Shown in pieces: positions 8,497 to 25,515 of a stretch of 33,115 nt of DNA (the stretch's first letter is position 1; every line of letters starts with the position of its first letter). This stretch comes from Escherichia coli. Lineage in GTDB: Bacteria > Pseudomonadota > Gammaproteobacteria > Enterobacterales > Enterobacteriaceae. A program made the translations under genes and the position numbers. The notes under the pieces are model-generated. The model saw only the letters and a list, made by a program, of their open reading frames with translations. It was not told the DNA's origin and did no database searches. The stretch lies in NCBI RefSeq assembly GCF_003334385.1, contig NZ_QOWN01000049.1. One strand, written 5' to 3'.

Positions 8497-9077
8497 TGAA
8501 CCATCTCATGATTGACACCGAAACACTGGGTAACGGACCGGACGCAGCCATATTCGCGATTGGGGCGGTGTTTTTCGACCCGTTCACCGGAAAGCTGGGC
8601 AAGCAGTTTGAGAAATTCATCGACCCGGTGGATTCAGAACGCAACGGCGGAACCGTCAATGCAGCCACCGCTGTATGGTGGGCCGGACAATCCGTGGAGG
8701 CCAGATCCTGCCTGCGCAACGCAGATGGAACAGAGCTGGCAGCAGTGACCGAATTTCTGGCGTTCATTTCACGCAATATGCATGACGAAAGCCCGGGCAA
8801 TTCACTGAACATATGGTGTAAGGGCGCATCCTTCGATTTCCCGATCCTGAAATCCGCCATAACACGCACAGCCGGAGAAAAAAGCATCCCCTGGTGCTAC
8901 TGGAACGAGCGCTGTATGCGCCCGCTTATCGCCATGGCTGAATCAACTGGATGGAAAATGCCAGGCAGATCAGGAAAAGAGGCCATTGCTCACACCGCGC
9001 TGGGCGACGCCATTTACCAGGCAAAGGTCGTGTCAGAAATCTGGCAGCGCTTCACAACACCATTCCTGAACATATGA
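8496..9077 (+). CDS. DEDDh-type 3'-5' exonuclease (DnaQ-like fold)
   Basis: Motifs MIDTETLG (Exo I), internal acidic residues and HTALGDA (Exo III with His) in a 193-aa protein; coupled to the upstream gene. Confidence 0.8.
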   Translation: MNHLMIDTETLGNGPDAAIFAIGAVFFDPFTGKLGKQFEKFIDPVDSERNGGTVNAATAVWWAGQSVEARSCLRNADGTELAAVTEFLAFISRNMHDESPGNSLNIWCKGASFDFPILKSAITRTAGEKSIPWCYWNERCMRPLIAMAESTGWKMPGRSGKEAIAHTALGDAIYQAKVVSEIWQRFTTPFLNI

Positions 9078-9086
9078 GGTGAAGCC

Positions 9087-9314
9087 ATGGTCGCCATCCT
9101 GAATGTGTGTTGCTGCCCCCCCCTGAACGTGGAAAGAAAAGCCCGCGCATCGCTGCGTTTATTCCGCGACGGCGTGCGGAATTTTTCACGCATAAAACCC
9201 CACGACTACCTGGTAATAAGAATCGGTTTCCGCTGGCGATTACTGAGCAAAAACAACGGGGCGTCATGGGATTTATTAACGCACGAAACCTATAACAAAG
9301 AGGCCGCGTTATGA
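9087..9314 (+). CDS. Hypothetical protein (75 aa, Cys-rich N-terminus)
   Basis: ATG 9087 after gaggtga; stop overlaps the dam start (ATGA), consistent with coupling; no domain recognised. Confidence 0.4.
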   Translation: MVAILNVCCCPPLNVERKARASLRLFRDGVRNFSRIKPHDYLVIRIGFRWRLLSKNNGASWDLLTHETYNKEAAL

Positions 9315-10291
9315 GCAAAGAACTGTTATCCGGTACGCCACTGAAATGGGTGGGCGGAAAAAGCCGCATCATGAACACACTGAAGGCGCACCTGCCAGAA
9401 GCCGACTGTCTGGTTGAGCCGTTCGTGGGCGGCGCATCGGTATTCATGAACACCAGTTACAAGCGTTACATCCTGGGTGATTCCAATGGTGCGCTGATTA
9501 ATTTCTACCGGCAAGCTAGGGACAACACCGACAGCCTGATCGACGAGGCGAAAACCCTGTTCCTGAACCACAACAACAGGGGTGACTATCTCATCATTCG
9601 CGAAACCTTTAACGCAGAGAATCATGCCTTCCTGAACAGCAGAACGGGAATAAGCGACCGCCGTGAACTGCGACTGGCCGCCATGTTTTTGTACCTGAAC
9701 CGACACAGCTTTAACGGTTTGTTCCGCGTGAACGGAAAAGGCGATTTTAACGTGCCTTTCGGCTGCTACCGCAAGCCCTACTTCCCTGAGCGTGAAATCC
9801 GCGCATTTGCAGACAAGGCAAACAGCACCCGAACGCTGCTTATCCACGCAGATTTTAAGGATACGCTGAACTCTGCCAGTCACCTGTTCGGCATGGGCAA
9901 CACGCTTTGCGTGTACTGCGATCCCCCTTACCTGCAATTCAGTGGCCGGGACAATTTTACCGCCTACGGAAAACCATTCGATGAAGACGAGCACGTTCGT
10001 CTGAGGGCAGCGCTTGACCGCCTTTCACAGGAAACGGGCGGCATGACCAGCATCACCATCTCCAATTCCGACACACCGGAAACCAGACGCATTTATCAGG
10101 GTTACCGGATGAACACCATCCTGGCACCACGAAGCGTTGGCGCAAGAACCCGGGAATCAGCACCGGAGGTTATCGCCACCCTGAGACAGTGCGACGCCTG
10201 CGGTCGCCATGGCGGTGGCTACTGCCCGGACTGCGGACCTGTAACGGAAGATGCAACTTACAGCGCGATGTTAATCACCGCCAGTACGTAA
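9311..10291 (+). CDS. dam: DNA adenine (N6) methyltransferase, Dam family, with C-terminal Cys4 extension
   Basis: N-terminal PLKWVGGK, FVGGASVF and catalytic DPPY motif typical of Dam-family MTases; C-terminal CDACGRHGGGYCPDCGP is zinc-ribbon-like. Confidence 0.88.
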   Translation: MSKELLSGTPLKWVGGKSRIMNTLKAHLPEADCLVEPFVGGASVFMNTSYKRYILGDSNGALINFYRQARDNTDSLIDEAKTLFLNHNNRGDYLIIRETFNAENHAFLNSRTGISDRRELRLAAMFLYLNRHSFNGLFRVNGKGDFNVPFGCYRKPYFPEREIRAFADKANSTRTLLIHADFKDTLNSASHLFGMGNTLCVYCDPPYLQFSGRDNFTAYGKPFDEDEHVRLRAALDRLSQETGGMTSITISNSDTPETRRIYQGYRMNTILAPRSVGARTRESAPEVIATLRQCDACGRHGGGYCPDCGPVTEDATYSAMLITAST

Positions 10292-10325
10292 ACAACCAGT
10301 AAATCAGTAACACCGGAGTCAGGAA

Positions 10326-10562
10326 ATGAATAGCGAAAACAACAAAGAGCTTTTGCGGGAATTGCGTCTCATCGCCCGTGCACACGAGGAAGCAGCAAAA
10401 GTTATCGCTGCTGCTGGAAGACCAGAGCTCGTTATCGCTTCAGCAATCTCACTGAGGATCACCATGGAAGCAATCCGGGTGATTCAGGATCAGGAAAGTG
10501 AAATCGCCACCCTTAAAAAGCAGCTCAACGAGAAATCTGCCGGGCAAAGGAGTCAGCAATGA
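10326..10562 (+). CDS. Hypothetical protein (78 aa)
   Basis: ATG 10326 with ggag RBS; coupled to the next ORF (ATGA). Confidence 0.55.
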   Translation: MNSENNKELLRELRLIARAHEEAAKVIAAAGRPELVIASAISLRITMEAIRVIQDQESEIATLKKQLNEKSAGQRSQQ

Positions 10563-10777
10563 TCCAGGAATCAACCGTTATCCGGTTCACAGCCAACGGC
10601 CGTCAGTACGAGGTAGACGAAGCCCTGATTGATTACAGCATGACCCGCCAGAGCTCACGCTTTCAGGACATGTACCACATCCGGCTAATCAACGGTTCGT
10701 CTTTCAACGCCACAAACGTGGAAGAAGTACGCGTGCTGACAGCAACACGCAACACGGGAGGTAAAGCATGGCAGTGA
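10559..10777 (+). CDS. Hypothetical protein (72 aa)
   Basis: ATGA overlap with the upstream gene; overlaps the downstream start. Confidence 0.55.
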   Translation: MIQESTVIRFTANGRQYEVDEALIDYSMTRQSSRFQDMYHIRLINGSSFNATNVEEVRVLTATRNTGGKAWQ

Positions 10778-11118
10778 TTTATATCGCCGGCCCCATGACC
10801 GGATACGAAGACTGCAATAGAACGGCGTTTTGCCTGGAGGATCTGAAGCTTCGGTGCGCCGGAAACATCGTTCTTAATCCTGCCGTACTGCCTGACGGAT
10901 TAAGCCAGCAGCAGTACATGAGTATTTGTATTCCGATGCTCATGTGTGCCGATGCCATTTACTTACTGGATGGATGGGAAGAATCCGCTGGCGCACGGGC
11001 TGAGTACGCAATGGCGCTCAAACTGAACATGCCAGTGTCATTCCCGGAAAACCGGGCAGCCGTCGAAACCGTCGCGCAGCTGCTTCACAAATCAAAAGCC
11101 ACACAGGCGACTGAGTAA
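10768..11118 (+). CDS. DUF4406-like protein (nucleoside 2-deoxyribosyltransferase-like fold)
   Basis: N-terminal MAVIYIAGPMTG motif typical of DUF4406 phage proteins as recalled; gggagg RBS. Confidence 0.6.
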   Translation: MAVIYIAGPMTGYEDCNRTAFCLEDLKLRCAGNIVLNPAVLPDGLSQQQYMSICIPMLMCADAIYLLDGWEESAGARAEYAMALKLNMPVSFPENRAAVETVAQLLHKSKATQATE

Positions 11119-11616
11119 CCGACCGGAGATCGAAACATGATTGCGCGAAGAGCTGCCAACCGCCTCACAGGCTTTATTCCAGGCAAGGTTGATCATGCAC
11201 TCCATCACGGCGCTGTCACTTTCCTCAACAAAGGAGAGGCGCGCAATCATGCATTCTGGGGTGAGCACGTGGCGCTGGCTAATCAGTCTTTGATAGCTAA
11301 GCGCCTGCCATTCAGCCTTTTCAGCTCTGATAGAAAGAGAGGCAGCCATGACCTGCCACACCAGAAAGAGCACCACACTGGCGAAAACAAACGTTGCGCT
11401 GTCGCAAAAAATGAATGCGGCAACAATCGCAAGGAAAGCGCTAATCCTCAGAACCAAGGAAGCGCGACGGTGGAGAAGGCTTGTCATGTGTTCAAGCCAG
11501 TAGCTGTACCACAGGTCAAAAAGAATTTCGTAATCAGAAGGGAGCTTATCACTCATCAGAAACACCCCGCGTATGCAGACAATCACCAGTTGCCAGGTGA
11601 TATTAATTCGCAACAT
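11092..11616 (-). CDS. Hypothetical membrane protein (2-3 predicted TM helices), antisense to early operon
   Basis: Hydrophobic stretches ITWQLVIVCIRGVFL, LVLRISAFLAIVAAFIFC and FVFASVVLFLVWQVMAA followed by a ~70-aa soluble tail; convergent with and overlapping the 3' end of the DUF4406 gene; start uncertain (ATG 11616 or 11556; track starts at GTG 11739). Confidence 0.45.
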   Translation of the reverse strand: MLRINITWQLVIVCIRGVFLMSDKLPSDYEILFDLWYSYWLEHMTSLLHRRASLVLRISAFLAIVAAFIFCDSATFVFASVVLFLVWQVMAASLSIRAEKAEWQALSYQRLISQRHVLTPECMIARLSFVEESDSAVMECMINLAWNKACEAVGSSSRNHVSISGRLLSRLCGF

Positions 11617-11939
11617 TCTAACCACATCAGCACGCAACACAAAAACCGCTTGCCAGCGCTCGTCGTGTCGGGTTACATTTCCGCTGCACCTCATAAAACG
11701 GGTGCCGGGATTTCCACCCCGCTGACAAACGAAGCGCACAGCCGCGCCAGCGGTTTTTTTGTGCGTACTGTATCGCCACGTCTTTTTCGCGTCAGAATTA
11801 TGGCGGGGCGTACAGGGCCGACTTCGGTCGGGCCGGTTTCTTCGTTTGCCGGTTGTGGAAACCCTGTACGTCTCGCCACCCTGAGTTTTCCACCTCTGGT
11901 TGGTGAGTTTTCAAAATTCACAAACGAAGAGGCCACACC

Positions 11940-12161
11940 ATGGCAAACCGCAAGCAACAGCGCGCCCGCGCTGAGCGTCTTCACATCCGCAGCGAAATCA
12001 ACCGCAGACTTTTCCGCGCAACACGCGTCGCGCAAATCATGCATATCAACATGCTGCATGAGCGCACGCACGCACTATCAAACCGTTACTGCGCTGCCGT
12101 CTTCAGCTATCTGGCCGAAGACCTGGCAGAACTGCAAAGCCTCATCAACCAGCACCGATAA
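11940..12161 (+). CDS. Hypothetical small basic protein (73 aa)
   Basis: ATG 11940 with gaagagg RBS; arginine-rich; no domain recognised. Confidence 0.4.
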   Translation: MANRKQQRARAERLHIRSEINRRLFRATRVAQIMHINMLHERTHALSNRYCAAVFSYLAEDLAELQSLINQHR

Positions 12162-12229
12162 ACCACATCCGGAAGCTATCCCACACCTGCACGCGGGAGG
12201 CTTCCGCACATCTGTTACCGGAGGTTCTC

Positions 12230-12646
12230 ATGAAGAGCGTTAAGGGACTTTCAGATATTCAGGACTTCTTTAACTGGATGTGGGCGGTGGATCCCCTGCT
12301 GGCTTCCCGCCTGAACAACTGGCACGACTACTACCGCCGCGCCTGTAAACAGGCCGCCCGCAGCATCACCACATACGGGGATTTCTCCTTCACCGTTGAC
12401 GGTCGTTACCGCGTGGACGTGAAAGGTGACGGTGATGGCTTTGGTTTATTTCACATCAACGGCACCGACAGTACCGCCATCAGCTGGTCATCGTCAGAGA
12501 TGGCACTGGTTCTGGAAATGACAACCCACAGCGTGGCCGTGAAAGGCATATACACCGCAGAAGACTTTATCGGTGAATACCAGCGCCTTCTCGTGCTGTA
12601 CCGCGCGGCGTTTCAGGAGGTCACTGGCGGGGAGTACGACGCATGA
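12230..12646 (+). CDS. Hypothetical protein (138 aa) preceding replication gene A
   Basis: ATG 12230 with ggagg RBS; stop overlaps the A start (ATGA). Confidence 0.6.
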   Translation: MKSVKGLSDIQDFFNWMWAVDPLLASRLNNWHDYYRRACKQAARSITTYGDFSFTVDGRYRVDVKGDGDGFGLFHINGTDSTAISWSSSEMALVLEMTTHSVAVKGIYTAEDFIGEYQRLLVLYRAAFQEVTGGEYDA

Positions 12647-15156
12647 GTGACCGCAATGCACAGCTGGCGTACCCGTGGAACGCACCGCTACCGGTTATCG
12701 ATCCTGAAACGTTCGGCAGAGCACAACCAACCGCATTACGCCAGGCCATTCAGAGCTACATCAACGAGGACATTCGCATTGATGCCAGACTGGATGAAGA
12801 AACCGTCTCCTTCCTGACAAACACAGACGAAGGCAAGCGAATTAATTCGCATCTTCACCACGACGAAGAGCGTCGGGTCAGACTGGAAAAACTGGCGAAG
12901 CACAAACGCGAGAATCCGCCCACGGTGGTATCGGAAGCCATGGCAGAACTTCGCGCCCTGCCCTCGTTTCTTGCCAGTCCGCTCATCCGGGACCTGGCTC
13001 GCCTGAGCCGCAAACAGGAGAGCGCACGCCGGGAAGGGCTTAAGAATAACAGCGCATATGCGGCGGATAACTTCGTTCGTCATGGGCTGCGTGCCCGCCT
13101 GAAACGTATCGCCCGTGTGAATGAACGCTTTGCCACCCCGGCCTTTAAGGCCACCGCCGCCCGCGAACGGCTGGATGAACTGCTTATACTGCCGCAGCTG
13201 AGCCGTGACGAAATCCAGCACCTTGCCACCCTGACCGCCACCGCGTTTTCCGCCGCACTGGAGCGCGCATGTGATGAGATCATCGAAAAGACCGGCAGGG
13301 GTGACGATGACCTGTTCACCTGGTTACTGACCTACCAGTCACTGGCACACATGGCGTTAAAACTGGGTATCACGCCACCCTGCTGGCCGTCGCTGGAAAT
13401 CAGGCCAGACCGCCGCACCGCCCCCAACCCGGAACGGGTGCCGGGTGCGGTCATGCGCCTTTCCTGTGCGACATGGTGGAACAGTCAGTTAAGACACCTC
13501 CGGGACATCTGGCGTGAAGAGCTGTTACGCGCCGCAGGTCTGGTGTCACGTAAGACATCGGTATATATCAGCCATGAAGCGTTACTGGACTGGCGCGAAA
13601 AACGCCAGCGCACCCGCGATTTTCTGAAGGCCTGGGACATCGAGAACGAAGAGGGAGAACGGTTCAGCCTTGAGGATATCTACTGGGCAGGTCTCTCTAA
13701 TCCGCGTAACCGCCGTAACGAGATGATGACCTGCGCCCGGGGAATGGAGCAGGTCGCCGAAGCACGCGGCGACGTGGCGTTTTTCGTCACCGTCACAGCC
13801 CCTTCCCGTTTTCACAGCGTGAACGATGACGGCAGTCTGAACCCGAAATACTGCGGGGCAACGGTACGCGATGCCAGTGATTATCTGGTTTACCGCTTTT
13901 TCGCCGCCGTCCGCAGGGCCATCGACAAGGCCGGGCTGGGCTGGTACGGCGTGCGCACAGTGGAGCCCCACCACGACGGTACACCGCACTGGCACATGCT
14001 GGTATTCACCAGCCAGGAAAACGAAGCCCGTATCACTGAAATCATGCGCAACGCCGCCATCAGGGAGGACCGCGCAGAGCTGGGTGATGATATCTCCCCG
14101 CGTTTTAAATGCGAAAAAATCGACCCGGCAAAAGGCACACCGACAAGCTATATCGCGACCTATATCGGTAAGAACCTGGACGCCAGCGCCTTCATGGGAA
14201 ATGACCCGAAAACCGGCAAACCTTACATCGATAAGGAATCAGGCAAAACCATGGCCGAAACCGTGGAGAACGCCATCGGCTGGGCAGGCCTTCACCGCAT
14301 CCACCAGTTCCAGTTCTTCGGTATCCCGCCCCGCCAGGTATGGCGCGAACTCCGCCGCCTTGCCGGGCAGATGGCCCGTAACCCGACTGCCCCACAGCGT
14401 CTGGACCATGACGACATTGACGCCATACTGGCCGCCGCCGACGTGGGATGTTTTGCCACCTATATCACCCGCCAGGGTGGTGTGCTCATTCCCCGCAACA
14501 CGTACCTGGTCCGCACCGCATACGAAACTGCCGAAGAGGCCAACGACTACGGCGAATTCCCGCAACGCATTTACGGCGTCCGCGCCCCGTTACTCGGGGA
14601 GCGCTACACCATATGCACCCACCCGGACACCTGGAAACTGGTCAGACGTAAGCCGGAAAACGAAGACCGCACGGACGAGGGTTTTGACGTTGAGTGCGGC
14701 TTTGCCGCACCTTGGACTCGTGGCAATAACTGTCCCCATGATGAAAAAACAGACACCGGAGAGGGTAAAACCCCACCACCGGAAACCAGGAAAGAACAAA
14801 AACTGGTCGTCCCGGGAGGTGATTTGGGTGAGTGGTTAAGGTCACTGACCCCCACAGAGCGAAAACAACTCACCAGGCAGCTGAAAGATGCGCCATCTGA
14901 CACAAAAACCGTGAAAACCGGCGGCCCCACCACGCCCGATGACGTCATACATGTGCGTACAGCATTGCCGCTGACTGACGTCACCACCACCGTAATCAAG
15001 TCGGCACTGAGCGCGACGGGCGAGGAGCTACACAGTGGCGCAGCACTTTCCGTACACAGAGGTGCACGCGTTCGCCTGCCTGACGGGCGGATTGTGCACT
15101 GGGATGAGAAATCACGAAGCCTGGTGGCAGCAGATCAACCGGAGGTGAACCCATGA
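12643..15156 (+). CDS. A: Rolling-circle replication initiation endonuclease, P2 gpA family
   Basis: 837 aa with HUH motif (TPHWHMLVF) and paired active-site tyrosines (YIATYIGK) characteristic of P2 A / phiX174 gpA-type nickases. Confidence 0.9.
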   Translation: MSDRNAQLAYPWNAPLPVIDPETFGRAQPTALRQAIQSYINEDIRIDARLDEETVSFLTNTDEGKRINSHLHHDEERRVRLEKLAKHKRENPPTVVSEAMAELRALPSFLASPLIRDLARLSRKQESARREGLKNNSAYAADNFVRHGLRARLKRIARVNERFATPAFKATAARERLDELLILPQLSRDEIQHLATLTATAFSAALERACDEIIEKTGRGDDDLFTWLLTYQSLAHMALKLGITPPCWPSLEIRPDRRTAPNPERVPGAVMRLSCATWWNSQLRHLRDIWREELLRAAGLVSRKTSVYISHEALLDWREKRQRTRDFLKAWDIENEEGERFSLEDIYWAGLSNPRNRRNEMMTCARGMEQVAEARGDVAFFVTVTAPSRFHSVNDDGSLNPKYCGATVRDASDYLVYRFFAAVRRAIDKAGLGWYGVRTVEPHHDGTPHWHMLVFTSQENEARITEIMRNAAIREDRAELGDDISPRFKCEKIDPAKGTPTSYIATYIGKNLDASAFMGNDPKTGKPYIDKESGKTMAETVENAIGWAGLHRIHQFQFFGIPPRQVWRELRRLAGQMARNPTAPQRLDHDDIDAILAAADVGCFATYITRQGGVLIPRNTYLVRTAYETAEEANDYGEFPQRIYGVRAPLLGERYTICTHPDTWKLVRRKPENEDRTDEGFDVECGFAAPWTRGNNCPHDEKTDTGEGKTPPPETRKEQKLVVPGGDLGEWLRSLTPTERKQLTRQLKDAPSDTKTVKTGGPTTPDDVIHVRTALPLTDVTTTVIKSALSATGEELHSGAALSVHRGARVRLPDGRIVHWDEKSRSLVAADQPEVNP

Positions 15157-15557
15157 CACGATTCCATTGTGTACTCCAGCGCCATGATTTCAGCGCCATC
15201 ATGAGTGGACGCATTCCCGCACTGACGCTGAGCGGCGTCAGTGTTCGACCACAGCCAGGCGACGAACTGGAGATCACGATCGCAAACCCCGATCGCAGCA
15301 CAGATACCGTCATGACCGACATCCTGACTGCAAGAATCAACACCGACAGAAGCGCATTCATCGTTGCCGTGCGCCCTCGTCGCGCCATATCAGAGCCTGA
15401 ACCACTGACTCCCGTAGGAAAAATCATGCAGGCATACCACGAAAAACAGACCAGAAAACTCAACGAAGAACTGGCAAGAACGCTGGCCGTCGTTAACCGA
15501 AAAGCGGCAATTGTCCGCTATGTGCATTCGGCCGCCAGCAGGCAATCACGCAGGTAA
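15153..15557 (+). CDS. Hypothetical protein (134 aa), coupled to A
   Basis: ATGA overlap with the A stop; no domain recognised. Confidence 0.6.
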   Translation: MTRFHCVLQRHDFSAIMSGRIPALTLSGVSVRPQPGDELEITIANPDRSTDTVMTDILTARINTDRSAFIVAVRPRRAISEPEPLTPVGKIMQAYHEKQTRKLNEELARTLAVVNRKAAIVRYVHSAASRQSRR

Positions 15558-15605
15558 CAAAAGACCATGAACATGACCAGAAACAGCAAACCGAAGGAGC
15601 ACACC

Positions 15606-15776
15606 ATGAACGACATCAGGAGGATCAGCGACAAAGAGCTTACGAAAATGATTGAGTCGGCGCAGCAGCTGCTTTCACGACGAAATCCGGTTGTGGAAGA
15701 AACATGGTGGGAAAATTTACTGACAGCACTGACCGAACTCCGCGAACGCCGGAACAACGAAGGAGCCGCCAAATGA
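15606..15776 (+). CDS. Hypothetical small protein (56 aa)
   Basis: ATG 15606 (MNDIRRIS...) with aaggag RBS 7 nt upstream; the track ORF starts at 15567; stop overlaps the next start. Confidence 0.5.
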   Translation: MNDIRRISDKELTKMIESAQQLLSRRNPVVEETWWENLLTALTELRERRNNEGAAK

Positions 15777-16111
15777 AGACACCCAGAATGACCGGAAAGG
15801 TAATCATTTTACGCTACCTGGAAACGCACGCACGCTTCAGCGCACCAGAGCTGGTTGAAAAACTGGGCGTGAAAAGGACCATCATTAATCAGGCCGCCGG
15901 AAAGATGGTACGCGAAGGGCTGCTGGTTGTGGACGGGTACACGGACAAGATAACGCATTACCGGAAGCCAACGGAAAAGGAACGACTGGAGCTGGCGCAA
16001 CGGGCAGAATGGCAACAAGAGCCGTCCGTAATTGAAGCCTGCAAGCGCAGCGAAATCATGAAGAGAATTCTGTTTATCTACGGCGCTGGCGAAGAGCTGC
16101 CAGTCATCTAA
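15773..16111 (+). CDS. Winged-helix DNA-binding protein (MarR/PadR-like), hypothetical
   Basis: ATG 15773 with aggag RBS; segment FSAPELVEKLGVKRTIINQAAGKMVREGLLVV has a wHTH pattern. Confidence 0.5.
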   Translation: MKTPRMTGKVIILRYLETHARFSAPELVEKLGVKRTIINQAAGKMVREGLLVVDGYTDKITHYRKPTEKERLELAQRAEWQQEPSVIEACKRSEIMKRILFIYGAGEELPVI

Positions 16112-16143
16112 CCCCAACAATAAAACCAACACGGGAGACAAAT

Positions 16144-16461
16144 ATGCCAACACAGGTTGCAACAGAGGGACGACTGGCAGCAGACCCGAACACAAGGAGA
16201 ACAACCAAAGGAACCAACGTCACAACGGCACAACTGGCGGTATCACTACCCTGCCATGGCGCAGAACAGCCAACCACAATGTGGCTTTACCTTATTTCAT
16301 TCGGGAAGCAGCACGAAGAACTGGCAAAACACAGAAAAGGCGATCTGATTCTGGTGCACGGAAACTTGCAGGTAAACAGGTATCAGGACAAGTACGGGCA
16401 ACAGAAAGAGAGCTGGCAGTTGCTGGCGCAAAGCATTATCAGCTCAAGAACCGGGCGATGA
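16144..16461 (+). CDS. SSB-like OB-fold protein (105 aa, lacks C-terminal acidic tail)
   Basis: Aligns in pattern to the N-terminal OB fold of bacterial SSB (G-L..DP..R....G..V....LAVS...W....FGK..E.....KG....V.G.L....Y.D..GQ); gggaga RBS; followed by an intrinsic terminator. Confidence 0.6.
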   Translation: MPTQVATEGRLAADPNTRRTTKGTNVTTAQLAVSLPCHGAEQPTTMWLYLISFGKQHEELAKHRKGDLILVHGNLQVNRYQDKYGQQKESWQLLAQSIISSRTGR

Positions 16462-16471
16462 CTTCACGCAT

Positions 16472-16511
16472 GTTACCCTCAGCAGCGAGGGTAACACAGG
16501 ATTTCTTTTTT
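16472..16511 (+). terminator. Rho-independent terminator ending the early/replication operon
   Basis: Perfect 9-bp stem gttaccctc / gagggtaac with a 6-nt loop, followed a few nt downstream by a T-tract (tttcttttttt). Confidence 0.6.
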
Positions 16512-17047
16512 CAGTCAAACCGAAATCGGCCGCTTGTCGCGTATGCATAGGTGACCACCGCACCCAGCGCATTCACACGCTTCTTCACATAAATCACATT
16601 ACCATCCTGATAGTCACCGTATGGGTAGCAAATAAATATTGTTTTTTGCAAATCAGGATCATCAACAAATGCCCCTGAACAACTTTTTGAGCTACCGCGA
16701 CTGTACTCATAGGGAGCGGAATAGAATGAATCTTCACCCGGAAGAAAATATATCAGCGTAACCAGGAGGGTAAACAGAATCATCCAGGTAAGAAGGCACA
16801 TACCCGAAAAAAACTTAAGATACGATGTAACCCCGGTAAATTTAGACCGATCAACCAGGTTCTTTTTCAACAGGCACAGTGAGGCAAAAACCGAAAGCAC
16901 CACAGACACTGAAACAAGGCAGTTTGTCGTGAACGAATAAAGGTAGGTAATTCTGTAAACATCGTTTCGCCACCAAATAAAAAGAAAAATCCCCCCCAAA
17001 ACAGAAAGCGTGACAAAAGTTAAATAAGGATATGAGTAATTTTTCAC
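16511..17047 (-). CDS. Hypothetical multi-pass membrane protein (AT-rich cargo gene at the tin/old position)
   Basis: Low-GC ORF with three hydrophobic helices (YLTFVTLSVLGGIFLFIWW, CLVSVSVVLSVFASLCLL, MCLLTWMILFTLLVTLIYFL) and a ~75-aa C-terminal soluble region; start uncertain (GTG 17047 after ggtgag, or ATG 16801). Confidence 0.4.
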   Translation of the reverse strand: MKNYSYPYLTFVTLSVLGGIFLFIWWRNDVYRITYLYSFTTNCLVSVSVVLSVFASLCLLKKNLVDRSKFTGVTSYLKFFSGMCLLTWMILFTLLVTLIYFLPGEDSFYSAPYEYSRGSSKSCSGAFVDDPDLQKTIFICYPYGDYQDGNVIYVKKRVNALGAVVTYAYATSGRFRFD

Positions 17048-17601
17048 AGTTCTCACCCGGCAATACACCACTGATTCAGACAGATGATTATCATCACCAC
17101 CCACCCCCAAAAATCGCAAGATAAAAAATGCACAAAAGCGCACGAAATTGCACAATTTTTCTTATGTGTTTCATCCCCATTCAGCCCAGTAACGGCGCTG
17201 GCTGAGGCCGGTTTGCACGGTGCACGAAAAACGAGGCAATTGCAGTGCGCAGGCGACGAGGGAAGGGCGCCCGAATTGAGGGGTGGAAGGCAGGTTGCTT
17301 TATTTGGGGTCGTATTGCGCGTGATACGCACGCAGTGAAGCCGGTTCTGAAAAAACCACACCGAAACAGAGTCAGAAAAACAGGCCGCCAGAATGCGTCT
17401 GGTTGAGTTTTACGGGGTCGGGATTAAATGCGGAAACATCACACCGCAGGCATGACGCGAAAAAGAGAAAAACCACAGCAAAACATAATGTTAAATGTTA
17501 TTGATGAGTTGAGAAGCGAAAGGTGTATTGCGTTGACAGAGCTGGAGAGTCGGGGCATAAATTTTTTATGCCCCGGCGAAGCAGCCGACAAGCGAAGCGC
17601 G

Positions 17602-18645
17602 TCAGCTGGCGCCATCCTGAAGCAGCGAATAGGGATTAAAGCGCATCACTTCAACCCCAAGCCATTCATTGACATGCTTCATCGCTTCCATGACCGGTTG
17701 CAACTCGTTGATGAAAAATACCCTCGCCGCCTTCTCAACGTCACCGAACGCCGCGTTCCCGTCAGGCATTGCCCCCATCAGCTGAGGCGGTACACGGTGA
17801 GCCGCAAGGATATCGTCGCGGGCACTCCCCTTGATGTTAAGGAATTCGTCCTTCGCGGTGATTTGCTGGAACGGCAGTATTTGCACACCATCCTTGCCGC
17901 CACCTGGCGCGTGCAGAAGGATATTGCGGAACGCCCCCTTGCCACGGGATTCCGTGAGTGTTTTCTTGATGGCTTCCACGCTTTCAGCGTTTGCCTGGGC
18001 GGCACCAACATAGACAATGCACCCGGCATGTGAACCGTTGTCATAGTAGAGCTTGCGGAACGTATCCGCTGAGTTCGACAGACTCACCGACAGCAACCCA
18101 CCGATATACTCCGGCATCCCGTAGATTTCCTGGTTGATATCGGGGTTCAGAACGTGGCACACAGCCCCCTTACGGAAAGCAAATTCAGAACCATCATCAT
18201 TGAGGTACCAGTACGTATCGAGATCACTGCCCCGCCGCGTGTATTTCGCCAGCGCAGGACGAAGCGCAATGGGTTCACCGAACTTGTTGCGGCGGACTTC
18301 AAGATAGGCATTACCGAACACGAACCAGTCCAGCGCAAACGCGGAAAACGCCTGGCGGGACAGTAGCGGATGAGGAACAAAGCAGCCGTTCAGGGCATTA
18401 CGCTTAAAATACAGGGCCGACTGGTGCCATGATGCACAACGCGAGGCGCGAGCAATGGCATTCCAGTCCATGGGGGTGTCATAGTAGCGGCCATTATCGG
18501 CGCACGACATGTTATCAAGCAGATCAAGACGGCTTGCTTCATAAGGACCGTCAAACGTGAAAGCACTGAGTGACGGCGCTGATTTCAGTGCATCAGCCAG
18601 TGAGCCCGTGCCGCGCTTTCCGGTGTATTTTTTACGTTTACTCAT
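17602..18645 (-). CDS. Q: Portal protein, P2 gpQ family
   Basis: 347 aa, size and position matching P2 Q; immediately followed on the same strand by the large terminase. Confidence 0.88.
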   Translation of the reverse strand: MSKRKKYTGKRGTGSLADALKSAPSLSAFTFDGPYEASRLDLLDNMSCADNGRYYDTPMDWNAIARASRCASWHQSALYFKRNALNGCFVPHPLLSRQAFSAFALDWFVFGNAYLEVRRNKFGEPIALRPALAKYTRRGSDLDTYWYLNDDGSEFAFRKGAVCHVLNPDINQEIYGMPEYIGGLLSVSLSNSADTFRKLYYDNGSHAGCIVYVGAAQANAESVEAIKKTLTESRGKGAFRNILLHAPGGGKDGVQILPFQQITAKDEFLNIKGSARDDILAAHRVPPQLMGAMPDGNAAFGDVEKAARVFFINELQPVMEAMKHVNEWLGVEVMRFNPYSLLQDGAS

Positions 18646-18650
18646 TGTGT

Positions 18651-20384
18651 TCAGAACTCCATTGCAAAGCCACGATTATCCTCACGCTCTGCGCCGATTG
18701 GCTCATTGATAACAGCAAGCATGGTTGCCCAGGCGAGATCACCATGACTGACACCGCGTGAGCGGTCAGTGTCATAGGTGATATAGCCGCCGGGCGTCTG
18801 TATTTTTCGCACCGATGCAAAGGCCTGTACCAGGTCGCGCTCGCTGCGGTCATACTCCCAGCGTCCGGCACGGACCACCTGAAGCATCTTCATGACCAGC
18901 GCCCGCTTTGAAGCGATATTAAAGTTATACGGAACAGCCAGGGGGAAGAATTTTTTCACTATCTGATAAACCCCTTCCCCGTTCCCGCCGGTGACATCAA
19001 TCCCGATATGCTTCACATTGTATTTTTGGGTGTACTCCTCAATCAGGGCGGCCTGCTGTTCAAACTCCATGCCCTGAACCCTGACGGTTTCCACCGTACG
19101 AAAACGCCCACCGGCAACAAGGGGTGGCACGCACACCGACAGCGCCCCGCAGTCCCCCTTCCCGCTGCTGCCGTTGGCGTCATACCCGAGCCAGACTTCC
19201 CTCACCCCCATAGGGCGGACAGCAAAAGGCTTCCAGTCCGGCCATTCGTCATAGCCATCAACACCGCACCCGACGAGCGTATTCAGACTGAAGGCTGCCT
19301 CACCATCACGGACAAATTCGCACATGTACAGATTGCGAAATTCACTTTCTGTATTTTCGCCGCGAATATCATCAATACTGGTGAACTGCCATCCGTTAGC
19401 GACAGCATCCTCAATGGTGACAATCTGCCGCCACGTTTTGTCGGGAAAGAGCACGCCCCTCTTCAGGTGAGCATGTGAAACATCAAACTCACTGCGTTTT
19501 GAGCGTGGCTGTTCGCTGTTCCAGCGGTCCCCCGTCCAGAACTGATACGCCTCATGCATTTCCCCCGACGGCGTCGAGAAGTAAGTGCGCGTAAGCCCTT
19601 CCAGGGTCGCCATTGCCCCGGCAACCTTCCTGAGGTTCACAAAGTTACTGACCCAGAAAAATTCGTCGAATTTAAGATGACCGGTATAGGACTGCGCGGT
19701 GGCAGCTGACGTACCGAGGAAGTGCAGCTCCGCGCCGTTGGACAGCACGATCTTGTCGCCCCCTTTCAGCTCAACATCCACTTCCAGCGCCGCCTGCTGA
19801 ATAAAATGCTTGAACTGATACGCCTGACGACGGGAGGCGGACAAAAATATCTGGTTGCGCTGATACCCGGCGGAGACGTCATCACGCAGTGCATCAAGGA
19901 GCGCCTCGCGCGCAAAATACCAGGTCGCACCAATCTGACGCGACTTCAGGATCATACGGTTGCGGTGGTGACGGTTTTCGTACCATTCACGTTGATGCCA
20001 CGCCAGCGTCGGGAGGATTTTTTCACGAAGCGCGACAATCTGTTCTTCGGTGAAGTGATTTTTCAGTCTGCGTTTACGGGGCTTTTTACCGGAAACGGCC
20101 TGTTCTCCCTGACCGTCATTCAGTTTTTTCAGCTGGCGCGTGAGAAGGTCAATTTCCTTAAAATCGCTGCCGCTTTTCTCTGTTTTTGTGGTGAGCTGGA
20201 TCAGGCGCGCATCAATGGACTGGGTGACCCGCTGGATCGGAGGTGTGGCATCCCACTCATCGCGTTTTTTCCATGAGTAAATCGTGTTCTGGCTGATCCC
20301 CATCAGTTGCGAGATTTCCGCAGGTGTGTACCCTTGCCAGTAAAGTTGTCTTGCCCTTATGCGGACAAATGCATCCTGAATCAT
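18651..20384 (-). CDS. P: Terminase large (ATPase) subunit, P2 gpP family
   Basis: N-terminal HTH-like segment (YTPAEISQLMGISQNTIYSWKKRDEWD) and size matching P2 P; ATG 20384 has an aggggg RBS; the in-frame ATG at 20429 (592 aa) is the alternative. Confidence 0.88.
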   Translation of the reverse strand: MIQDAFVRIRARQLYWQGYTPAEISQLMGISQNTIYSWKKRDEWDATPPIQRVTQSIDARLIQLTTKTEKSGSDFKEIDLLTRQLKKLNDGQGEQAVSGKKPRKRRLKNHFTEEQIVALREKILPTLAWHQREWYENRHHRNRMILKSRQIGATWYFAREALLDALRDDVSAGYQRNQIFLSASRRQAYQFKHFIQQAALEVDVELKGGDKIVLSNGAELHFLGTSAATAQSYTGHLKFDEFFWVSNFVNLRKVAGAMATLEGLTRTYFSTPSGEMHEAYQFWTGDRWNSEQPRSKRSEFDVSHAHLKRGVLFPDKTWRQIVTIEDAVANGWQFTSIDDIRGENTESEFRNLYMCEFVRDGEAAFSLNTLVGCGVDGYDEWPDWKPFAVRPMGVREVWLGYDANGSSGKGDCGALSVCVPPLVAGGRFRTVETVRVQGMEFEQQAALIEEYTQKYNVKHIGIDVTGGNGEGVYQIVKKFFPLAVPYNFNIASKRALVMKMLQVVRAGRWEYDRSERDLVQAFASVRKIQTPGGYITYDTDRSRGVSHGDLAWATMLAVINEPIGAEREDNRGFAMEF

Positions 20385-20451
20385 TGACGCCCCCTTGCTG
20401 TTTGATCTCAAGAGTAAACGCCCGCGCATTCATCCAGGTATCCGGTGCCAT

Positions 20452-20469
20452 TGTCGCCACGCTCTTACA
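20452..20469. promoter_or_regulatory. Late-promoter activator site (TGT-N12-ACA dyad) in the divergent P/O region
   Basis: tgtcgccacgctcttaca in the 112-157 bp P-O intergenic region; P2 late promoters carry a TGT-N12-ACA element near -55 recognised by Ogr/Delta-type activators (established knowledge); spacing fits a start site ~27 nt before O. Confidence 0.5.
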
Positions 20470-20541
20470 ACATCGCCGCCTTGAGGCGCAGCCATCCCCT
20501 TATCATCATGAAGAAAAGCAACCCACAGAAAGGGGATTTAC

Positions 20542-21378
20542 ATGGCAAGTAAAAACGCGCCAGTACGGAAAAAATTCCGCGTCGCCGTCTCGGGCACCAC
20601 CATCGACGGGCGTGAGATTTCGGGGCTGATGTTGCGTCAGGCCGCTGAGAATTACGACCCGGAAGTGTGGGGGTCACGGGTGAACGTGGAGCACATGCTT
20701 TCACGTATGCCATCCAGTGAATTCAGTGCCGTGGGCGATGTGATTTCACTGTCCACCGAAGAAATCACGGAAGGCAAGCTGGCCGGTCGCACCGCACTGT
20801 ATGCCGAAATAGAGCCAACCCACCGTATGACGGAGATGTTGCGAGACGGCAAGAAAATCTACTCAAGCATTGAGCTTGAACCCAACATTGATGCCGTTGG
20901 CGGCCCTTACGTAATTGGCCTGGCAATGACCGATACCCCGGCAAGTCTCGGCACTGAACGACTGAAGTTTGCCGCCCAGCAGCGCGCCAGCATCATGCAG
21001 TTCAACAGCCGCAGCGGTGAGCCAGTCATGTTCACCGAATGTATGGAAGCGGAACTCGCGGCCTCCGTACAGGACAGCACCGAAGAAAGCCAGAAATGGT
21101 TTTCGCGCGTCATGGCGCTCATCAGTAAAACCCGTGACACGGACAGCGAGCAGTTCGCTCACGTGCGCGAAGCCGTCGAGAGCATTGCCACGGAACAGGC
21201 CGGCCTTCTGGATCGCTTCCATGCGATGGAAGAGCAACAGCGCAGTGATAAGGCATCACTGGAAACCCTGACCCGCGAACTGACTGAACTGAAGGCGCAG
21301 CTGAAAACCGAAGATGCAGACAAGGAACAGCGCTTTGCTTCAACCGGTGGCAACAGCCACGCCCTGGCTGATTTTTAA
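20542..21378 (+). CDS. O: Capsid scaffolding protein, P2 gpO family
   Basis: 278 aa; position between terminase and major capsid; acidic coiled-coil-like C-terminus; ggggattt RBS. Confidence 0.88.
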   Translation: MASKNAPVRKKFRVAVSGTTIDGREISGLMLRQAAENYDPEVWGSRVNVEHMLSRMPSSEFSAVGDVISLSTEEITEGKLAGRTALYAEIEPTHRMTEMLRDGKKIYSSIELEPNIDAVGGPYVIGLAMTDTPASLGTERLKFAAQQRASIMQFNSRSGEPVMFTECMEAELAASVQDSTEESQKWFSRVMALISKTRDTDSEQFAHVREAVESIATEQAGLLDRFHAMEEQQRSDKASLETLTRELTELKAQLKTEDADKEQRFASTGGNSHALADF

Positions 21379-21393
21379 CAGAGGAACAAAATC

Positions 21394-22488
21394 ATGGGAA
21401 ACCGCTTAACGCTTTCTCGCGAAGGCCGCAGCAATCTTGAGGCCTATCTTGCACGCCAGGCTGAACTGGCCGAAACCACCGTAGAACGACTGGGGAAAAC
21501 CTTCAGCGTTGATCCGGCTGTTCATCAGAAGATGGAAAACGCCATCAAAGAGAGCGACGAGCTGCTGAAAAGAATCAACAGCATCGGCGTTGACGATCAG
21601 GAGGGTGAAAAAGTCCTGGTGAATACCAGCGGCCCCATCGCCAGCACCAACTCAACCAGTGACGGCGTGAAGCGACGCAATCCCGCTGACGTCTCTGATC
21701 TGGCATCACGTCGTTATCGCTGCGAACAGGTGAACTACGACACCTTCATCAGCTACGCACAGATTGACGCGTGGAGCAGCCAGAAAAACTTCCAGCAACT
21801 GCTGAGTGCACAAATCACCCGACAGATTGCACTGGACCGTATCATGATTGGCTTTAACGGTGAGTCGCACGCCATCATCTCCGATCGTTCTGCCAACCCG
21901 AAACTTCAGGACGTTAACACCGGGTGGCTGAAACACATCCGTGAACACGCCACGACGCGTGTCGTGAAGGCAATGACGCTGACCCGTCGCGATCATGAAA
22001 ACAAACTGGTTGCAAAAGGCGACTACGGCAACGCTGACGCGATGGTTAACGACATTCGCTCTTCCATACTGGATGAGTGGCACAAGGACGCCCCGGATCT
22101 GGTTGTTGTCATGGGCCGCAACCTGTTCAACACGCTGCGTCTGCCTATGATTAACGCCATCAGCACCACCAACCCGAACACGGAGCTGGTCGCCGGACAG
22201 CTGATTACAGCCTCCCGCACCATTGGCGCGCTGCCAACCTTCTTTGCGCCGTACTTCCCGGACGATGCCATGCTGATCACGTCGTTCAGCAACCTTTCGG
22301 TCTACTTCCAGAAAGGGTCACTGCGTCGCTTCATCCGTGAAGAGCCGGAGTACAACCGTATCGCCACCTACCAGTCCATGAACGACTGCTACGTGGTGGA
22401 AGACTACGGCAAGTGCGCACTGATTGAGGGCATTTCTTTCGCCGGTGAAGATCCGGAAGACAAGAAAGAGGCAGAAGCACAGGCGTAA
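21394..22488 (+). CDS. N: Major capsid protein, P2 gpN family
   Basis: 364 aa; blocks such as DPDLVVVMGRNLF, PYFPDDAMLITSFSNLSVY and YVVEDYGKCALIEGI parallel P2 N as recalled; aggaac RBS. Confidence 0.9.
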   Translation: MGNRLTLSREGRSNLEAYLARQAELAETTVERLGKTFSVDPAVHQKMENAIKESDELLKRINSIGVDDQEGEKVLVNTSGPIASTNSTSDGVKRRNPADVSDLASRRYRCEQVNYDTFISYAQIDAWSSQKNFQQLLSAQITRQIALDRIMIGFNGESHAIISDRSANPKLQDVNTGWLKHIREHATTRVVKAMTLTRRDHENKLVAKGDYGNADAMVNDIRSSILDEWHKDAPDLVVVMGRNLFNTLRLPMINAISTTNPNTELVAGQLITASRTIGALPTFFAPYFPDDAMLITSFSNLSVYFQKGSLRRFIREEPEYNRIATYQSMNDCYVVEDYGKCALIEGISFAGEDPEDKKEAEAQA

Positions 22489-22496
22489 CGCATTAT

Positions 22497-22516
22497 GGCG
22501 GGCACATGTGCCCGCC
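22497..22516 (+). terminator. Perfect 20-bp GC-rich palindrome downstream of the capsid gene (hairpin / attenuator candidate)
   Basis: ggcgggcacatgtgcccgcc is its own reverse complement, 9 nt after the N stop; no strong T-tract follows, so it may be a partial terminator or processing element. Confidence 0.35.
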
Positions 22517-22537
22517 GGTTAATCAGGAGTCGAATAC

Positions 22538-23347
22538 ATGCTGACACCGGCACAACGATACCTTCAGCGCGTGATGGCGCATCATCGGGCTGATCCATTC
22601 AGTCGCGAAGAGCAGCGAACACGAACGGCACATGAACAGGTTCTTCACCAGTTACGCCTCGCCCAGTTGCAGCTGAAGGGCGTGCAGTCGAACATCGCGA
22701 AAGCGGAGCTGAAGAAGCACCTGATACCGAATTTTGAAGGCTGGATAGACGGCACGCTGGCAGGCGACAGCGGACGCCAGGACGAAGTCATTACCACCAT
22801 GATGGTGTGGGCAATTGACTGCCGGGATTATCCGCTGGCACTGCGTATCGGTGAGTACGTCATTCGTCACCGGCTGGCACTGCCGGACAACTTCGGGCGC
22901 GATTCGGCGACCGTGCTCACCGAAGAAATTGCCGAAGTTGTGCTGACAGAAGCCGCCACCAACAGCGAAACCGACTTATCCGGCTATATCCGTATGCTGG
23001 ACGAGCTGGATGCACTGGTTCACGACCAGGACATGCCGGATCAGGTTCGTGCAAAACTACATAAGGCGCGGGCATTTTCACGGCGCGCATCAGGCAGTAC
23101 GGAAGACATGACTGTGTCACTTGGTCTGCTGCGTGAAGCTATGCGCATCAATCCGGCAGCAGGCGTGAAGCGTGAAATCGCCACGCTGGCCAGAAAGGTA
23201 TCAAAGGTTCAGCCGGAACCGGAAAAACCGGCAGAAGAGAAAAGTAAATCGAAAGCAACATCAGGGCGCAAAAAGCCGACTACAAAAGCGACGGCCAGAA
23301 AAGCCACGAAAAAAACCGCCGCAAAACCGTCGCGCAAGGCGACCTGA
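22538..23347 (+). CDS. M: Terminase small (endonuclease) subunit, P2 gpM family, with Lys/Ala/Thr-rich C-terminal tail
   Basis: Position and ~245-aa core consistent with P2 M; caggag RBS; C-terminal ~50 aa are low-complexity basic (KSKSKATSGRKKPTTKATARKATKKTAAKPSRKAT). Confidence 0.8.
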   Translation: MLTPAQRYLQRVMAHHRADPFSREEQRTRTAHEQVLHQLRLAQLQLKGVQSNIAKAELKKHLIPNFEGWIDGTLAGDSGRQDEVITTMMVWAIDCRDYPLALRIGEYVIRHRLALPDNFGRDSATVLTEEIAEVVLTEAATNSETDLSGYIRMLDELDALVHDQDMPDQVRAKLHKARAFSRRASGSTEDMTVSLGLLREAMRINPAAGVKREIATLARKVSKVQPEPEKPAEEKSKSKATSGRKKPTTKATARKATKKTAAKPSRKAT

Positions 23348-23455
23348 TAACACCGGACCCGACCTCGTCGGCAGGCGGCGCGACCGGTGATCTGATCGCT
23401 GACTCCCGGTCATTTTCACCGGTCGCCCACCGCCTGATCTACAGGAGAAGACATC

Positions 23456-23950
23456 ATGAGCATGGTAGCCAGACCCCGTGTGAACGACGCCACGGATGAC
23501 ACGACAGACACCGACGACGGAGAAGCGCGCATCAGTACAGACGCGTTCTGGCCGGATATCGTGCTGAAAGAGCTGCGCCTTGCCATGCGCATTCCCGGGC
23601 GCACCACCACGTCACGTCTGCTGCATTCGGCCACCGAAGCTGTGGCACACGTAACGGCAGAGCTTGACACCTGGAAACAGAAACAGGAGGCGGCGGGACG
23701 GTCGACACTGGCGGACGTTCCGGCAGCACACATCAACGGTGAGAGCGTGAACGTGCACCGGTATCGACGCGCGGTGTATGCACTGACCCGCGCGGGCGTT
23801 CTTGAGCGTTCGCGGGATGTGGACACCACCGACAAAGGTGATCGCCGGGCCGATGCGCTGGACATGCAGATTGAAGATATGTGGCGCGATGCACGCTGGG
23901 CAATATCCGATATTCGCGGCGTCAGACGGATTTATGCGGAGCTGATTTAA
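23456..23950 (+). CDS. L: Head completion/stabilisation protein, P2 gpL family
   Basis: 164 aa at the gpL position; ggaga RBS; stop overlaps the X start. Confidence 0.8.
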   Translation: MSMVARPRVNDATDDTTDTDDGEARISTDAFWPDIVLKELRLAMRIPGRTTTSRLLHSATEAVAHVTAELDTWKQKQEAAGRSTLADVPAAHINGESVNVHRYRRAVYALTRAGVLERSRDVDTTDKGDRRADALDMQIEDMWRDARWAISDIRGVRRIYAELI

Positions 23951-24150
23951 TGAAGGTAACCGCGCATGACGGCGACACCGTTGACTTACTCTGCCAGCGT
24001 CATTACGGCATGACAAAGGGCGTGACAGAGCGCGTTCTGGCTGCCAATCCGGGGCTGAGTAACACGGTATTCCTCACTGCCGGGCAGGAAGTTGAATTAC
24101 CGGAAATCACACAGGAAAAACAGCGCGAAACCGTTCAGTTGTGGGATTGA
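23950..24150 (+). CDS. X: Tail protein X (LysM-like), P2 gpX family
   Basis: 66 aa (MKVTAHDGDTVDLLCQRHYG...) at the gpX position between L and the holin. Confidence 0.78.
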   Translation: MKVTAHDGDTVDLLCQRHYGMTKGVTERVLAANPGLSNTVFLTAGQEVELPEITQEKQRETVQLWD

Positions 24151-24152
24151 TT

Positions 24153-24443
24153 ATGTTTCAGAGAATTTACGACCACATTACGTTTTTCACATCCGTCATG
24201 GTCACCGGTATAGGGGTTATGACGCTGAGCGAGAAGATGGCGCTGGCAGGACTGATTCTGGGGGCGCTTTCACTGCTGCGCGGATGGATGCACAGAACAC
24301 GTATGGAGCAGGCACAGGAGCGGCGCAATGAGCTTATTGCACGCATTGCCGACCAGATGCAGCACCGACCACTAAAAGGCAGCGAGAAGCGCGCTCTGGA
24401 AGCCCTGAATGCAGACGGGGAATCACATGCCAGGACAGATTAA
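24153..24443 (+). CDS. Y: Holin (two predicted TM helices)
   Basis: 96 aa with hydrophobic segments ITFFTSVMVTGIGVMTL and MALAGLILGALSLL and a charged C-terminus; immediately upstream of the endolysin. Confidence 0.65.
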   Translation: MFQRIYDHITFFTSVMVTGIGVMTLSEKMALAGLILGALSLLRGWMHRTRMEQAQERRNELIARIADQMQHRPLKGSEKRALEALNADGESHARTD

Positions 24444-24966
24444 ACGCTATGCCGTTGCCGCCATCGTGGCGCTGGGTTTTTCGCTGGCCCCCGGGGAGCT
24501 GAGAACCTCACAGGAGGCACAGGAAAAAATTGCCACCTGGGAAGAGTGTCGGGCATTCCCGTACAGGGATATCGCTGGCGTGAAAACAGTGGGTTGTGGC
24601 TCAACGGGAAACGTCCCCGACCGCCACCATACCAAACAGGAAGTTGCCGGTCGATGGGTGAACGATTTACGACGGGCGGAGAACTGCATCAATCAGAATT
24701 TCAATGGCCGCGACATGCCACAGCGCCACTTTGAGGCAATGACGGATGCTGCCTTTAATCTGGGGTGCAAAGGCCTGATGTGGTTTAAGGGGCGTGACGG
24801 GAGGATGCACAGAACAACCATCTGGAAGTTCGCTCAGGGAAAGAACTGGAGCGCAATGTGCGGCAGGCTGACGGATTTTGTGAACAGCGGCGGACGCTAT
24901 TCACAGGGGCTGTTTAACCGGCGCAATGACTTCAGGAACTGGTGTATGAACGGAGTGAAGCAATGA
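24409..24966 (+). CDS. K: SAR endolysin (GH24 T4-type lysozyme domain with N-terminal signal-anchor-release segment)
   Basis: N-terminal weakly hydrophobic YAVAAIVALGFSLA followed by a catalytic E-x8-D-x5-T pattern (EECRAFPYRDIAGVKT); the alternative start ATG 24427 has the better RBS. Confidence 0.82.
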   Translation: MQTGNHMPGQIKRYAVAAIVALGFSLAPGELRTSQEAQEKIATWEECRAFPYRDIAGVKTVGCGSTGNVPDRHHTKQEVAGRWVNDLRRAENCINQNFNGRDMPQRHFEAMTDAAFNLGCKGLMWFKGRDGRMHRTTIWKFAQGKNWSAMCGRLTDFVNSGGRYSQGLFNRRNDFRNWCMNGVKQ

Positions 24967-25397: not shown

Positions 25398-25512
25398 ATG
25401 GAGCGATCGGCTACTGGAAGCACTCGACACATGCAACGCAGACAAGGCTGCGATCGCCTGGCTGGATAAACAAAGAGCAGAACGGGCGCAAGATGCGCCC
25501 CATCAGGAGTAA
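25201..25512 (+). CDS. o-spanin (Rz1/LysC-like outer-membrane lipoprotein)
   Basis: GTG start after ggagag RBS; lipoprotein signal with lipobox LLLLSGC; overlaps the 3' end of the i-spanin gene out of frame. Confidence 0.6.
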   Translation: MKKCKKPCRATRVPALILPLLLLSGCSNTPHTLKTRLVYEPVPTVLTRQTPVPALEIPVTWYRVTEWSDRLLEALDTCNADKAAIAWLDKQRAERAQDAPHQE

Positions 25513-25515
25513 ACG

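Follow-up and report, generated by a model that had tools for sequence, protein, structure and literature searches.

The window analysed here, 33,115 nucleotides of Escherichia coli DNA (assembly GCF_003334385.1, contig NZ_QOWN01000049.1), carries in a prophage a gene for a DNA adenine methyltransferase of the Dam family whose C-terminus is extended by a short segment with four cysteines. The locus raises the question of what this segment is and what it does for the enzyme, and in particular whether it changes the DNA sequence that the methylase reads.

The methylase and its prophage

The features on which the analysis rests are the following.

964..4036, minus strand: host genes dmsA and dmsB
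4336..5343, minus strand: integrase
8487..9077, plus strand: DnaQ/Rv2179c-like 3'-5' exonuclease (matches to phrog_255, phrog_20376 and phrog_2082)
9087..9314, plus strand: 75-aa gene, 'ParE family toxin-like' in RefSeq (phrog_1525, function unassigned)
9311..10291, plus strand: Dam-family orphan DNA adenine methyltransferase gene with C-terminal Cys4 module (ORF, 326 aa)
9341..10180, plus strand: methyltransferase core, aa 11–290, equivalent to E. coli Dam 8–267 (phmmer against PDB 2g1p; Pfam PF02086)
9920..9931, plus strand: catalytic motif IV DPPY, aa 204–207 (sequence; 45 homologues)
10184..10270, plus strand: portable Cys4 knuckle module, aa 292–320, RQCDACGRHGGGYCPDCGPVTEDATYSAM (RecE models NF007259 and phrog_20376; alignments)
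10190..10234, plus strand: four cysteines, C294, C297, C305 and C308 (CxxCG ... CPxCG knuckles), presumed metal-binding (invariant columns; shuffle test)
10768..11118, plus strand: DUF4406 protein resembling nucleoside 2-deoxyribosyltransferases (phrog_355)
11092..11739, minus strand: ORF of unassigned function inside the early operon (phrog_6315)
12643..15156: replication endonuclease gene
16144..16461, plus strand: SSB-like 105-aa protein (phrog_44)

A P2-like prophage is inserted beside dmsABC, and the methylase gene belongs to its rightward early operon. The integrase is followed by a repressor-like HTH protein and a Cox-like regulator, and downstream of the methylase come small unknowns, the DUF4406 protein and the replication endonuclease gene. 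No restriction endonuclease gene adjoins the methylase, its neighbours being the DnaQ-like exonuclease, uncharacterised proteins of 72–78 aa and the DUF4406 protein; the enzyme is therefore an orphan, in agreement with the original prediction of an orphan methylase in a prophage early operon. The stop codon of the upstream 75-aa gene overlaps the methylase start (ATGA), which suggests translational coupling of the two. The order of exonuclease, small gene and Dam recurs in Klebsiella phage ST16-OXA48phi5.4, Salmonella SW3/SI7 and Enterobacter phiT5282H (Peduoviridae), whose Dams also end in a C-terminal Cys4 module.

Several minor features of the prophage may be recorded here. From position 7370 onward, and only there, it is 96–97% identical to prophages at the chpSB/ppa locus of other E. 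coli; within window 1..7370 the integrase/immunity region and the insertion site beside dmsA differ from those prophages, as does a stretch of ~580 bp (11046–11624) within the minus-strand ORF 11092..11739. The DUF4406 gene, three genes downstream of the methylase, is another nucleotide- or DNA-related function of the early cassette. The window contains no tRNA gene. An antisense ORF (9326..9994, minus strand) had no family match and was treated as a shadow ORF.

Phage Dams are well known, and the methylase gene itself is ordinary and already annotated in RefSeq: a 99.9% identical gene is annotated as 'DNA adenine methylase' (WP_016232593.1) in E. coli chromosomes, and copies at 80% DNA identity or above are found in 29 of 5,426 complete E. 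coli genomes. In profile searches the protein scores 224.3 bits against TIGR00571, above the cutoff of 114.85, and Pfam PF02086 (D12 class N6-adenine methyltransferase) covers aa 13–266 with E = 9.2e-52. The phrog_56 family ('DNA methyltransferase') spans aa 9–321, and phmmer aligns residues 11–290 to E. coli Dam (PDB 2g1p, 278 aa) with E = 5e-52. The core includes motif I (EPFVGGASVF, aa 36–45) and the DNA-reading loop (aa 130–153), and both DPPY and motif I (FxGxG-type) are invariant in an alignment of 45 homologues. The predicted Dam-family N6-adenine methyltransferase with a DPPY motif was thus confirmed by TIGR00571, by PF02086 and by the DPPY at aa 204–207. Against the equivalog model of host Dam, NF008152, the protein reaches 217.1 bits where the cutoff is 441, and it is therefore a phage paralogue within a separate phage subfamily, not the housekeeping Dam.

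In E. coli Dam the first base pair of the site is recognised by K9 and Y138, and the guanine of the fourth is contacted by R124; Y119 intercalates, N120 hydrogen-bonds to bases, and L122 and P134 also contact bases (PMC4417163). In the 2g1p alignment K9, Y119, N120, L122, R124, P134 and Y138 correspond to K12, F134, N135, L137, R139, P149 and Y153 of the window Dam; the sole change among these GATC-reading residues is a conservative Tyr to Phe at the intercalating position (Y119 to F134), and the positions are mostly invariant within the subfamily (45 homologues). Because the residues with which E. coli Dam reads GATC are conserved, the window Dam is expected to be GATC-specific. The two enzymes thus share family, motif I, motif IV DPPY and six GATC-contact residues, whereas the window Dam has an insertion of ~13 residues at aa 104–120 relative to E. 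coli Dam, and Phe and Cys in place of Y119 and R137. As a separate observation, GATC is rarer than expected in the prophage (window 4300..33115), with 81 sites observed against ~129 expected from trinucleotide counts, and is near expectation in the host dms flank (27 versus 30).

The Cys4 tail across Dam relatives

Since the alignment to 2g1p stops at residue 290, residues 291–326 are a 36-aa, Cys4-bearing C-terminal extension that E. coli Dam lacks. Together with the end of the Pfam D12 domain at residue 266, this bears out the claim that the tail is absent from canonical Dam. The motif CDACGRHGGGYCPDCGP is located at aa 294–310 (nt 10190–10240). It contains the four cysteines that had been described, but with a spacing of C-x2-C-x7-C-x2-C and not C-x2-C-x8-C-x2-C, the earlier reading being off by one. 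With the E-value limit raised to 10, Pfam still has no match on the tail. When the window Dam was shuffled, any CxxC-x5-12-CxxC arrangement appeared in 71 of 200,000 shuffles; this rarity, the invariance of the cysteines and the better conservation of the module than of the methylase domain argue that the motif is beyond chance.

The four cysteines are invariant in the 45 homologues, with catalytic domains ~50% identical. The survey was extended to the 120 closest database clusters, which come from Escherichia, Klebsiella, Enterobacter, Citrobacter, Raoultella and Salmonella and are likewise ~50% identical in the catalytic domain; here the four cysteines and the GPVMG..TY..M stretch are kept in all but 2 of 113 full-length proteins, the exceptions P0032 and P0069 being short of one Cys each. 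Within this Dam clade there is little or no variation in the four cysteines, the P-D of CPDC, the glycines and the Tyr. The module is 68% identical to distant homologues, the catalytic domain 48%.

In a survey of 83 related loci (80 from viral contigs and 3 fetched earlier) a canonical module was found in 27, other cysteine-rich tails in 7 and none in 49, the last being mainly more distant Dams of 271–293 aa and 40–46% identity. One clade of P2-like prophage Dams has the Cys4 tail as a regular feature, and the more distant P2-like Dams are without it. This also bears on whether the tail is a normal part of a known methyltransferase subfamily, as the original prediction had allowed: it is regular in a large clade, but no description of it was found and the clade is annotated only as 'DNA adenine methylase'. 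Presence of the module can differ between close relatives, as in Klebsiella phage 3LV2017, whose Dam is without it, and ST16-OXA48phi5.4, whose Dam has it. An apparent co-occurrence with the small phrog_1525 gene upstream was dropped, as the association tracks phylogeny and is not strict (in the 83 loci: both 23, module only 11, small gene only 7, neither 42).

Variant Dam tails were seen at L035, L038 and L044 (Salmonella SEN4/5 type) and at L030, L054 and L050. Some P2-like Dams keep the first knuckle and replace the remainder by a longer tail with 9–10 cysteines, for example VCDGCGRYEGGHCAKCCPGIAACEEGWSFDCRGNCDICEPSDNPETW, and further ones bear different Cys-containing tails. The C-terminus of the Dam clade is a hot spot of module swapping. 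Because whole sub-lineages have other tails in place of the module, it must be dispensable for methylation as such.

The window copy departs from its relatives in two respects. It reads VTED where the consensus is VMGD, a difference at two well-conserved positions. The P2-like phage Dams (Peduoviridae), which are ~46–50% identical to it in the catalytic domain, mostly add an acidic tip ending in Phe (...AEGF, ...QEPF), whereas this acidic-aromatic tip is missing from the window Dam, which ends ...LITAST. Given the absent tip beside the VTED departure, the window copy may be a weakened version of the module.

The module in RecE and other phage proteins

Residues 292–318 of the window Dam match positions 526–552 of the RecE model NF007259 and the exonuclease family phrog_20376. 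The match to NF007259 comprises only 27 residues and 18.1 bits against a cutoff of 1269, so that a module is common to the two proteins and the window Dam is not a member of the RecE family; outside the ~30 aa the window Dam and Rac RecE (exonuclease VIII) have no similarity. The consensus of the module, over ~30 aa, is C-x2-C-G-x2-GGG-x-CPDCG-x-VMGDATY. In E. coli K-12 RecE its cysteines are C517, C520, C528 and C531. RecE has its nuclease domain at the C-terminus, behind a long N-terminal region, and its module is internal, on the N-terminal side of the nuclease domain, whereas that of the window Dam is C-terminal. The RecE module, in which segments start VC(A/T), has an acidic linker rich in Q, E and P to itself, the setting one would expect for a unit that folds independently.

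When phage genomes were searched by tblastn with the tail alone, the module turned up in the Dam genes of P2-like phages and, in Rac-like and Stx-converting lambdoid phages, in genes named 'exodeoxyribonuclease VIII'; this search undercounts module-bearing Dams (ST16-OXA48phi5.4 was missed), probably owing to the low-complexity filter. Only 13 short fragments came out of a word-indexed database search with the module profile, too little to be informative. An exhaustive search with that profile over 1.84 billion representatives revealed further carriers: fusions of the RecE N-terminal region, the module and a DnaQ/Rv2179c-like exonuclease; nuclease-less RecE-like proteins; and several proteins of 79–335 aa without assigned function, one of them from an Aeromonas phage. 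The fusion type is represented by the protein of L003, with the module at aa 551 and PF16473 at aa 642–813, and P0158 has the same architecture. Two of the small module proteins are encoded in lambdoid early-left regions beside the genes for RecT, RdgC, Kil and Gam. The exonuclease domain fused directly downstream of the module in lambdoid 'ExoVIII' is, in P2-like phages, a separate gene two positions upstream of Dam, an arrangement that hints at a possible functional connection with the Dam module.

Across 26 representatives drawn from different proteins the four cysteines, the P-D of CPDC, the following Gly and the Tyr are invariant, and the glycines, V, G and T are nearly so. Neither Pfam nor NCBIfam holds a separate model of the module, the NCBIfam match being to the RecE model only, and no paper describing it was found in the literature searched for a Cys4 module in RecE and P2-like Dams. 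The Cys4 module is thus a small, conserved, portable and undescribed domain, of modest but real novelty.

Could the tail be a non-functional remnant of past recombination with a RecE-type gene? Phage genomes are mosaic, and in one RecE variant (P0212, 756 aa) a deletion has fused the GGGN inside the module to another GGGN upstream, with loss of the first knuckle. However, the cysteines are invariant across lineages that are only 50% identical, and the third codon positions have diverged with the protein sequence kept: Dam and RecE module DNA is 69% identical overall and 50% (13 of 26) at third codon positions. Such divergence under a conserved protein sequence points to an old homology, probably kept by purifying selection, and not to recent transfer, and we consider a remnant highly improbable.

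Two further observations concern the carriers. Truncated RecE constructs of the kind used in recombineering would be without the Cys4 module, as it lies N-terminal to the nuclease domain in K-12 RecE. At L007, a lambdoid early region, the gene just downstream of the small module protein P0177 (6537..7541) has a weak DnaJ CXXCXGXG match and may encode another cysteine-knuckle protein in that operon.

Metal, charge and the role of the module

With two CxxC knuckles (CxxCG and CPxCG) of invariant cysteines, the module has the hallmark of zinc ribbons and rubredoxin-like sites, and the two knuckles most likely hold one zinc ion. Structure predictions were of low confidence: the tail has pLDDT < 50 in an AlphaFold2 model of the full protein with 45 homologues, and the module alone, modelled with 26 sequences, has a mean pLDDT of 55. 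The nearest solved sequences are archaeal Nop10, eIF2-gamma zinc ribbons and a 68-aa protein in 9qtr (E = 0.02 to 1.4, weak), the best match in the PDB being 9qtr chain i (E = 0.02). The Nop10 and eIF2-gamma ribbons resemble the module in having two CxxCG/CPxCG knuckles 7–8 residues apart; the similarity is non-significant (E = 1 or above), and the trailing VMGDATY is specific to the phage module. In Pfam, PDB sequences and NCBIfam, neither a described zinc-ribbon family nor a solved structure matched significantly.

CxxCG and CPxCG are also short motifs of rubredoxins, and the four cysteines might accordingly sense iron or redox conditions and so turn the attached enzymes on or off as the state of the cell changes. 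The knuckle motifs are identical to those of rubredoxins, and a miniaturised rubredoxin gave a weak, non-significant match (E = 5.7). Similarity to rubredoxins is nevertheless not significant, the 7-residue spacer is far below that of natural rubredoxins, and no redox genes are nearby. A sensing role is, in our estimate, quite unlikely.

Some proteins bind nucleic acid through small zinc ribbons, and the original prediction had proposed that the added domain could alter target recognition or regulation. As an extra DNA-binding element, attached right behind the last strand of the methylase fold, the tail could change target sequence, flank preference or processivity, and the carriers of the module all act on DNA or sit among DNA-transaction genes. 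The charge of the module argues against DNA binding, however: every representative is acidic, with a net charge of 0 to -4 in 26 of 26. The window Dam keeps the residues with which E. coli Dam reads GATC, and the module occurs also in exonucleases that lack sequence specificity and in small proteins that are not methylases; in RecE a flexible acidic linker holds it well away from the nuclease domain. Acidity and the conserved GATC-reading residues together make a tail-driven change of sequence specificity unlikely, and the proposal of altered recognition was not upheld.

The module might instead be a structural cap, a metal-stapled end piece that stabilises the protein and has neither partner nor separate function. 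In favour of this are the very small size of the module, its exchange for short or other Cys-rich tails in some lineages that kept the methylase, and a GDATY stretch like a generic beta-hairpin. The last point arose from the exhaustive search, in which large surface proteins with 'VTGDATYTAxF' repeats were dominant; they have no cysteines and were rejected as members. Their likeness suggests that the GDATY stretch is hairpin-like, and since VMGDATY resembles the beta-hairpin motif of these unrelated repeats, conservation of the module could be purely structural. Against this, the same non-Cys residues (P-D, VMG, D-A-T-Y) recur in unrelated protein contexts, the conservation of the module exceeds that of the attached enzyme, and midway in the disordered RecE linker there is nothing to cap. 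We therefore regard a mere cap as unlikely.

The explanation that we favour, and hold to be moderately probable, is that the window encodes an active, GATC-specific orphan early Dam with a portable zinc-knuckle tail that serves protein docking or recruitment. The methylase would be expressed from the early operon of the P2-like prophage and, by analogy with other phage Dams, would keep phage DNA fully methylated under rapid replication. Its last ~36 residues would form a separate mini-domain of ~30 aa, made of the CxxCG and CPDCG knuckles and a short conserved VMGDATYxxM. Temperate enterobacterial phages appear to attach this module to unrelated early proteins, namely Dam, RecE, a DnaQ-like exonuclease and small proteins. 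There it would most likely act as a handle for protein-protein contacts, bringing the enzymes to a partner or site that they share, and not as a reader of DNA sequence. We infer such a role because the module is acidic, is attached to unrelated chemistries and stands alone in the disordered RecE linker. A more specific version, in which the CPDCG knuckle is a shared address tag to one common host or phage target such as the replisome, SSB-coated DNA or a defence/repair hub, is offered tentatively, as a lesser possibility.

The module links P2-like Dams with RecE, a protein in wide recombineering use, and lies (C517–C531) within the N-terminal two thirds of RecE, to which no function is assigned. 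If the address tag is real, it would account for part of the unexplained contribution of the RecE N-terminus, which is missing from truncated RecE. If the module is a docking handle, its partner would reveal how several phage early DNA enzymes are targeted, and this could matter for RecET-based cloning, for phage anti-restriction and for the triggering of defence. Both Dam and RecE have been reported as triggers of retron-Sen2, in a study in which no module-bearing Dam was tested (bioRxiv 10.1101/2020.06.22.160242).

A last set of observations concerns the acidic tips. The SSB-like protein of the prophage ends ...SIISSRTGR, an OB-fold without an acidic C-terminal tail. Host SSB recruits its partners via an acidic C-terminal tail. 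An acidic tip with a terminal aromatic residue is present in 84 of 113 full-length Dam homologues (...FDGAEGF, ...ETQEPF, ...FDDLEAF, ...FDNGEPF), as seen in related proteins P0023–P0120 and loci L014–L051. A second motif, [WF]xGFDxAxG, recurs even in Dam tails that have no Cys4 module and is missing from the window protein. The Dam tips look like the C-terminal tip of E. coli SSB, ...DFDDDIPF, and, judged from this resemblance of sequence, could be a mimicry of the SSB tail.
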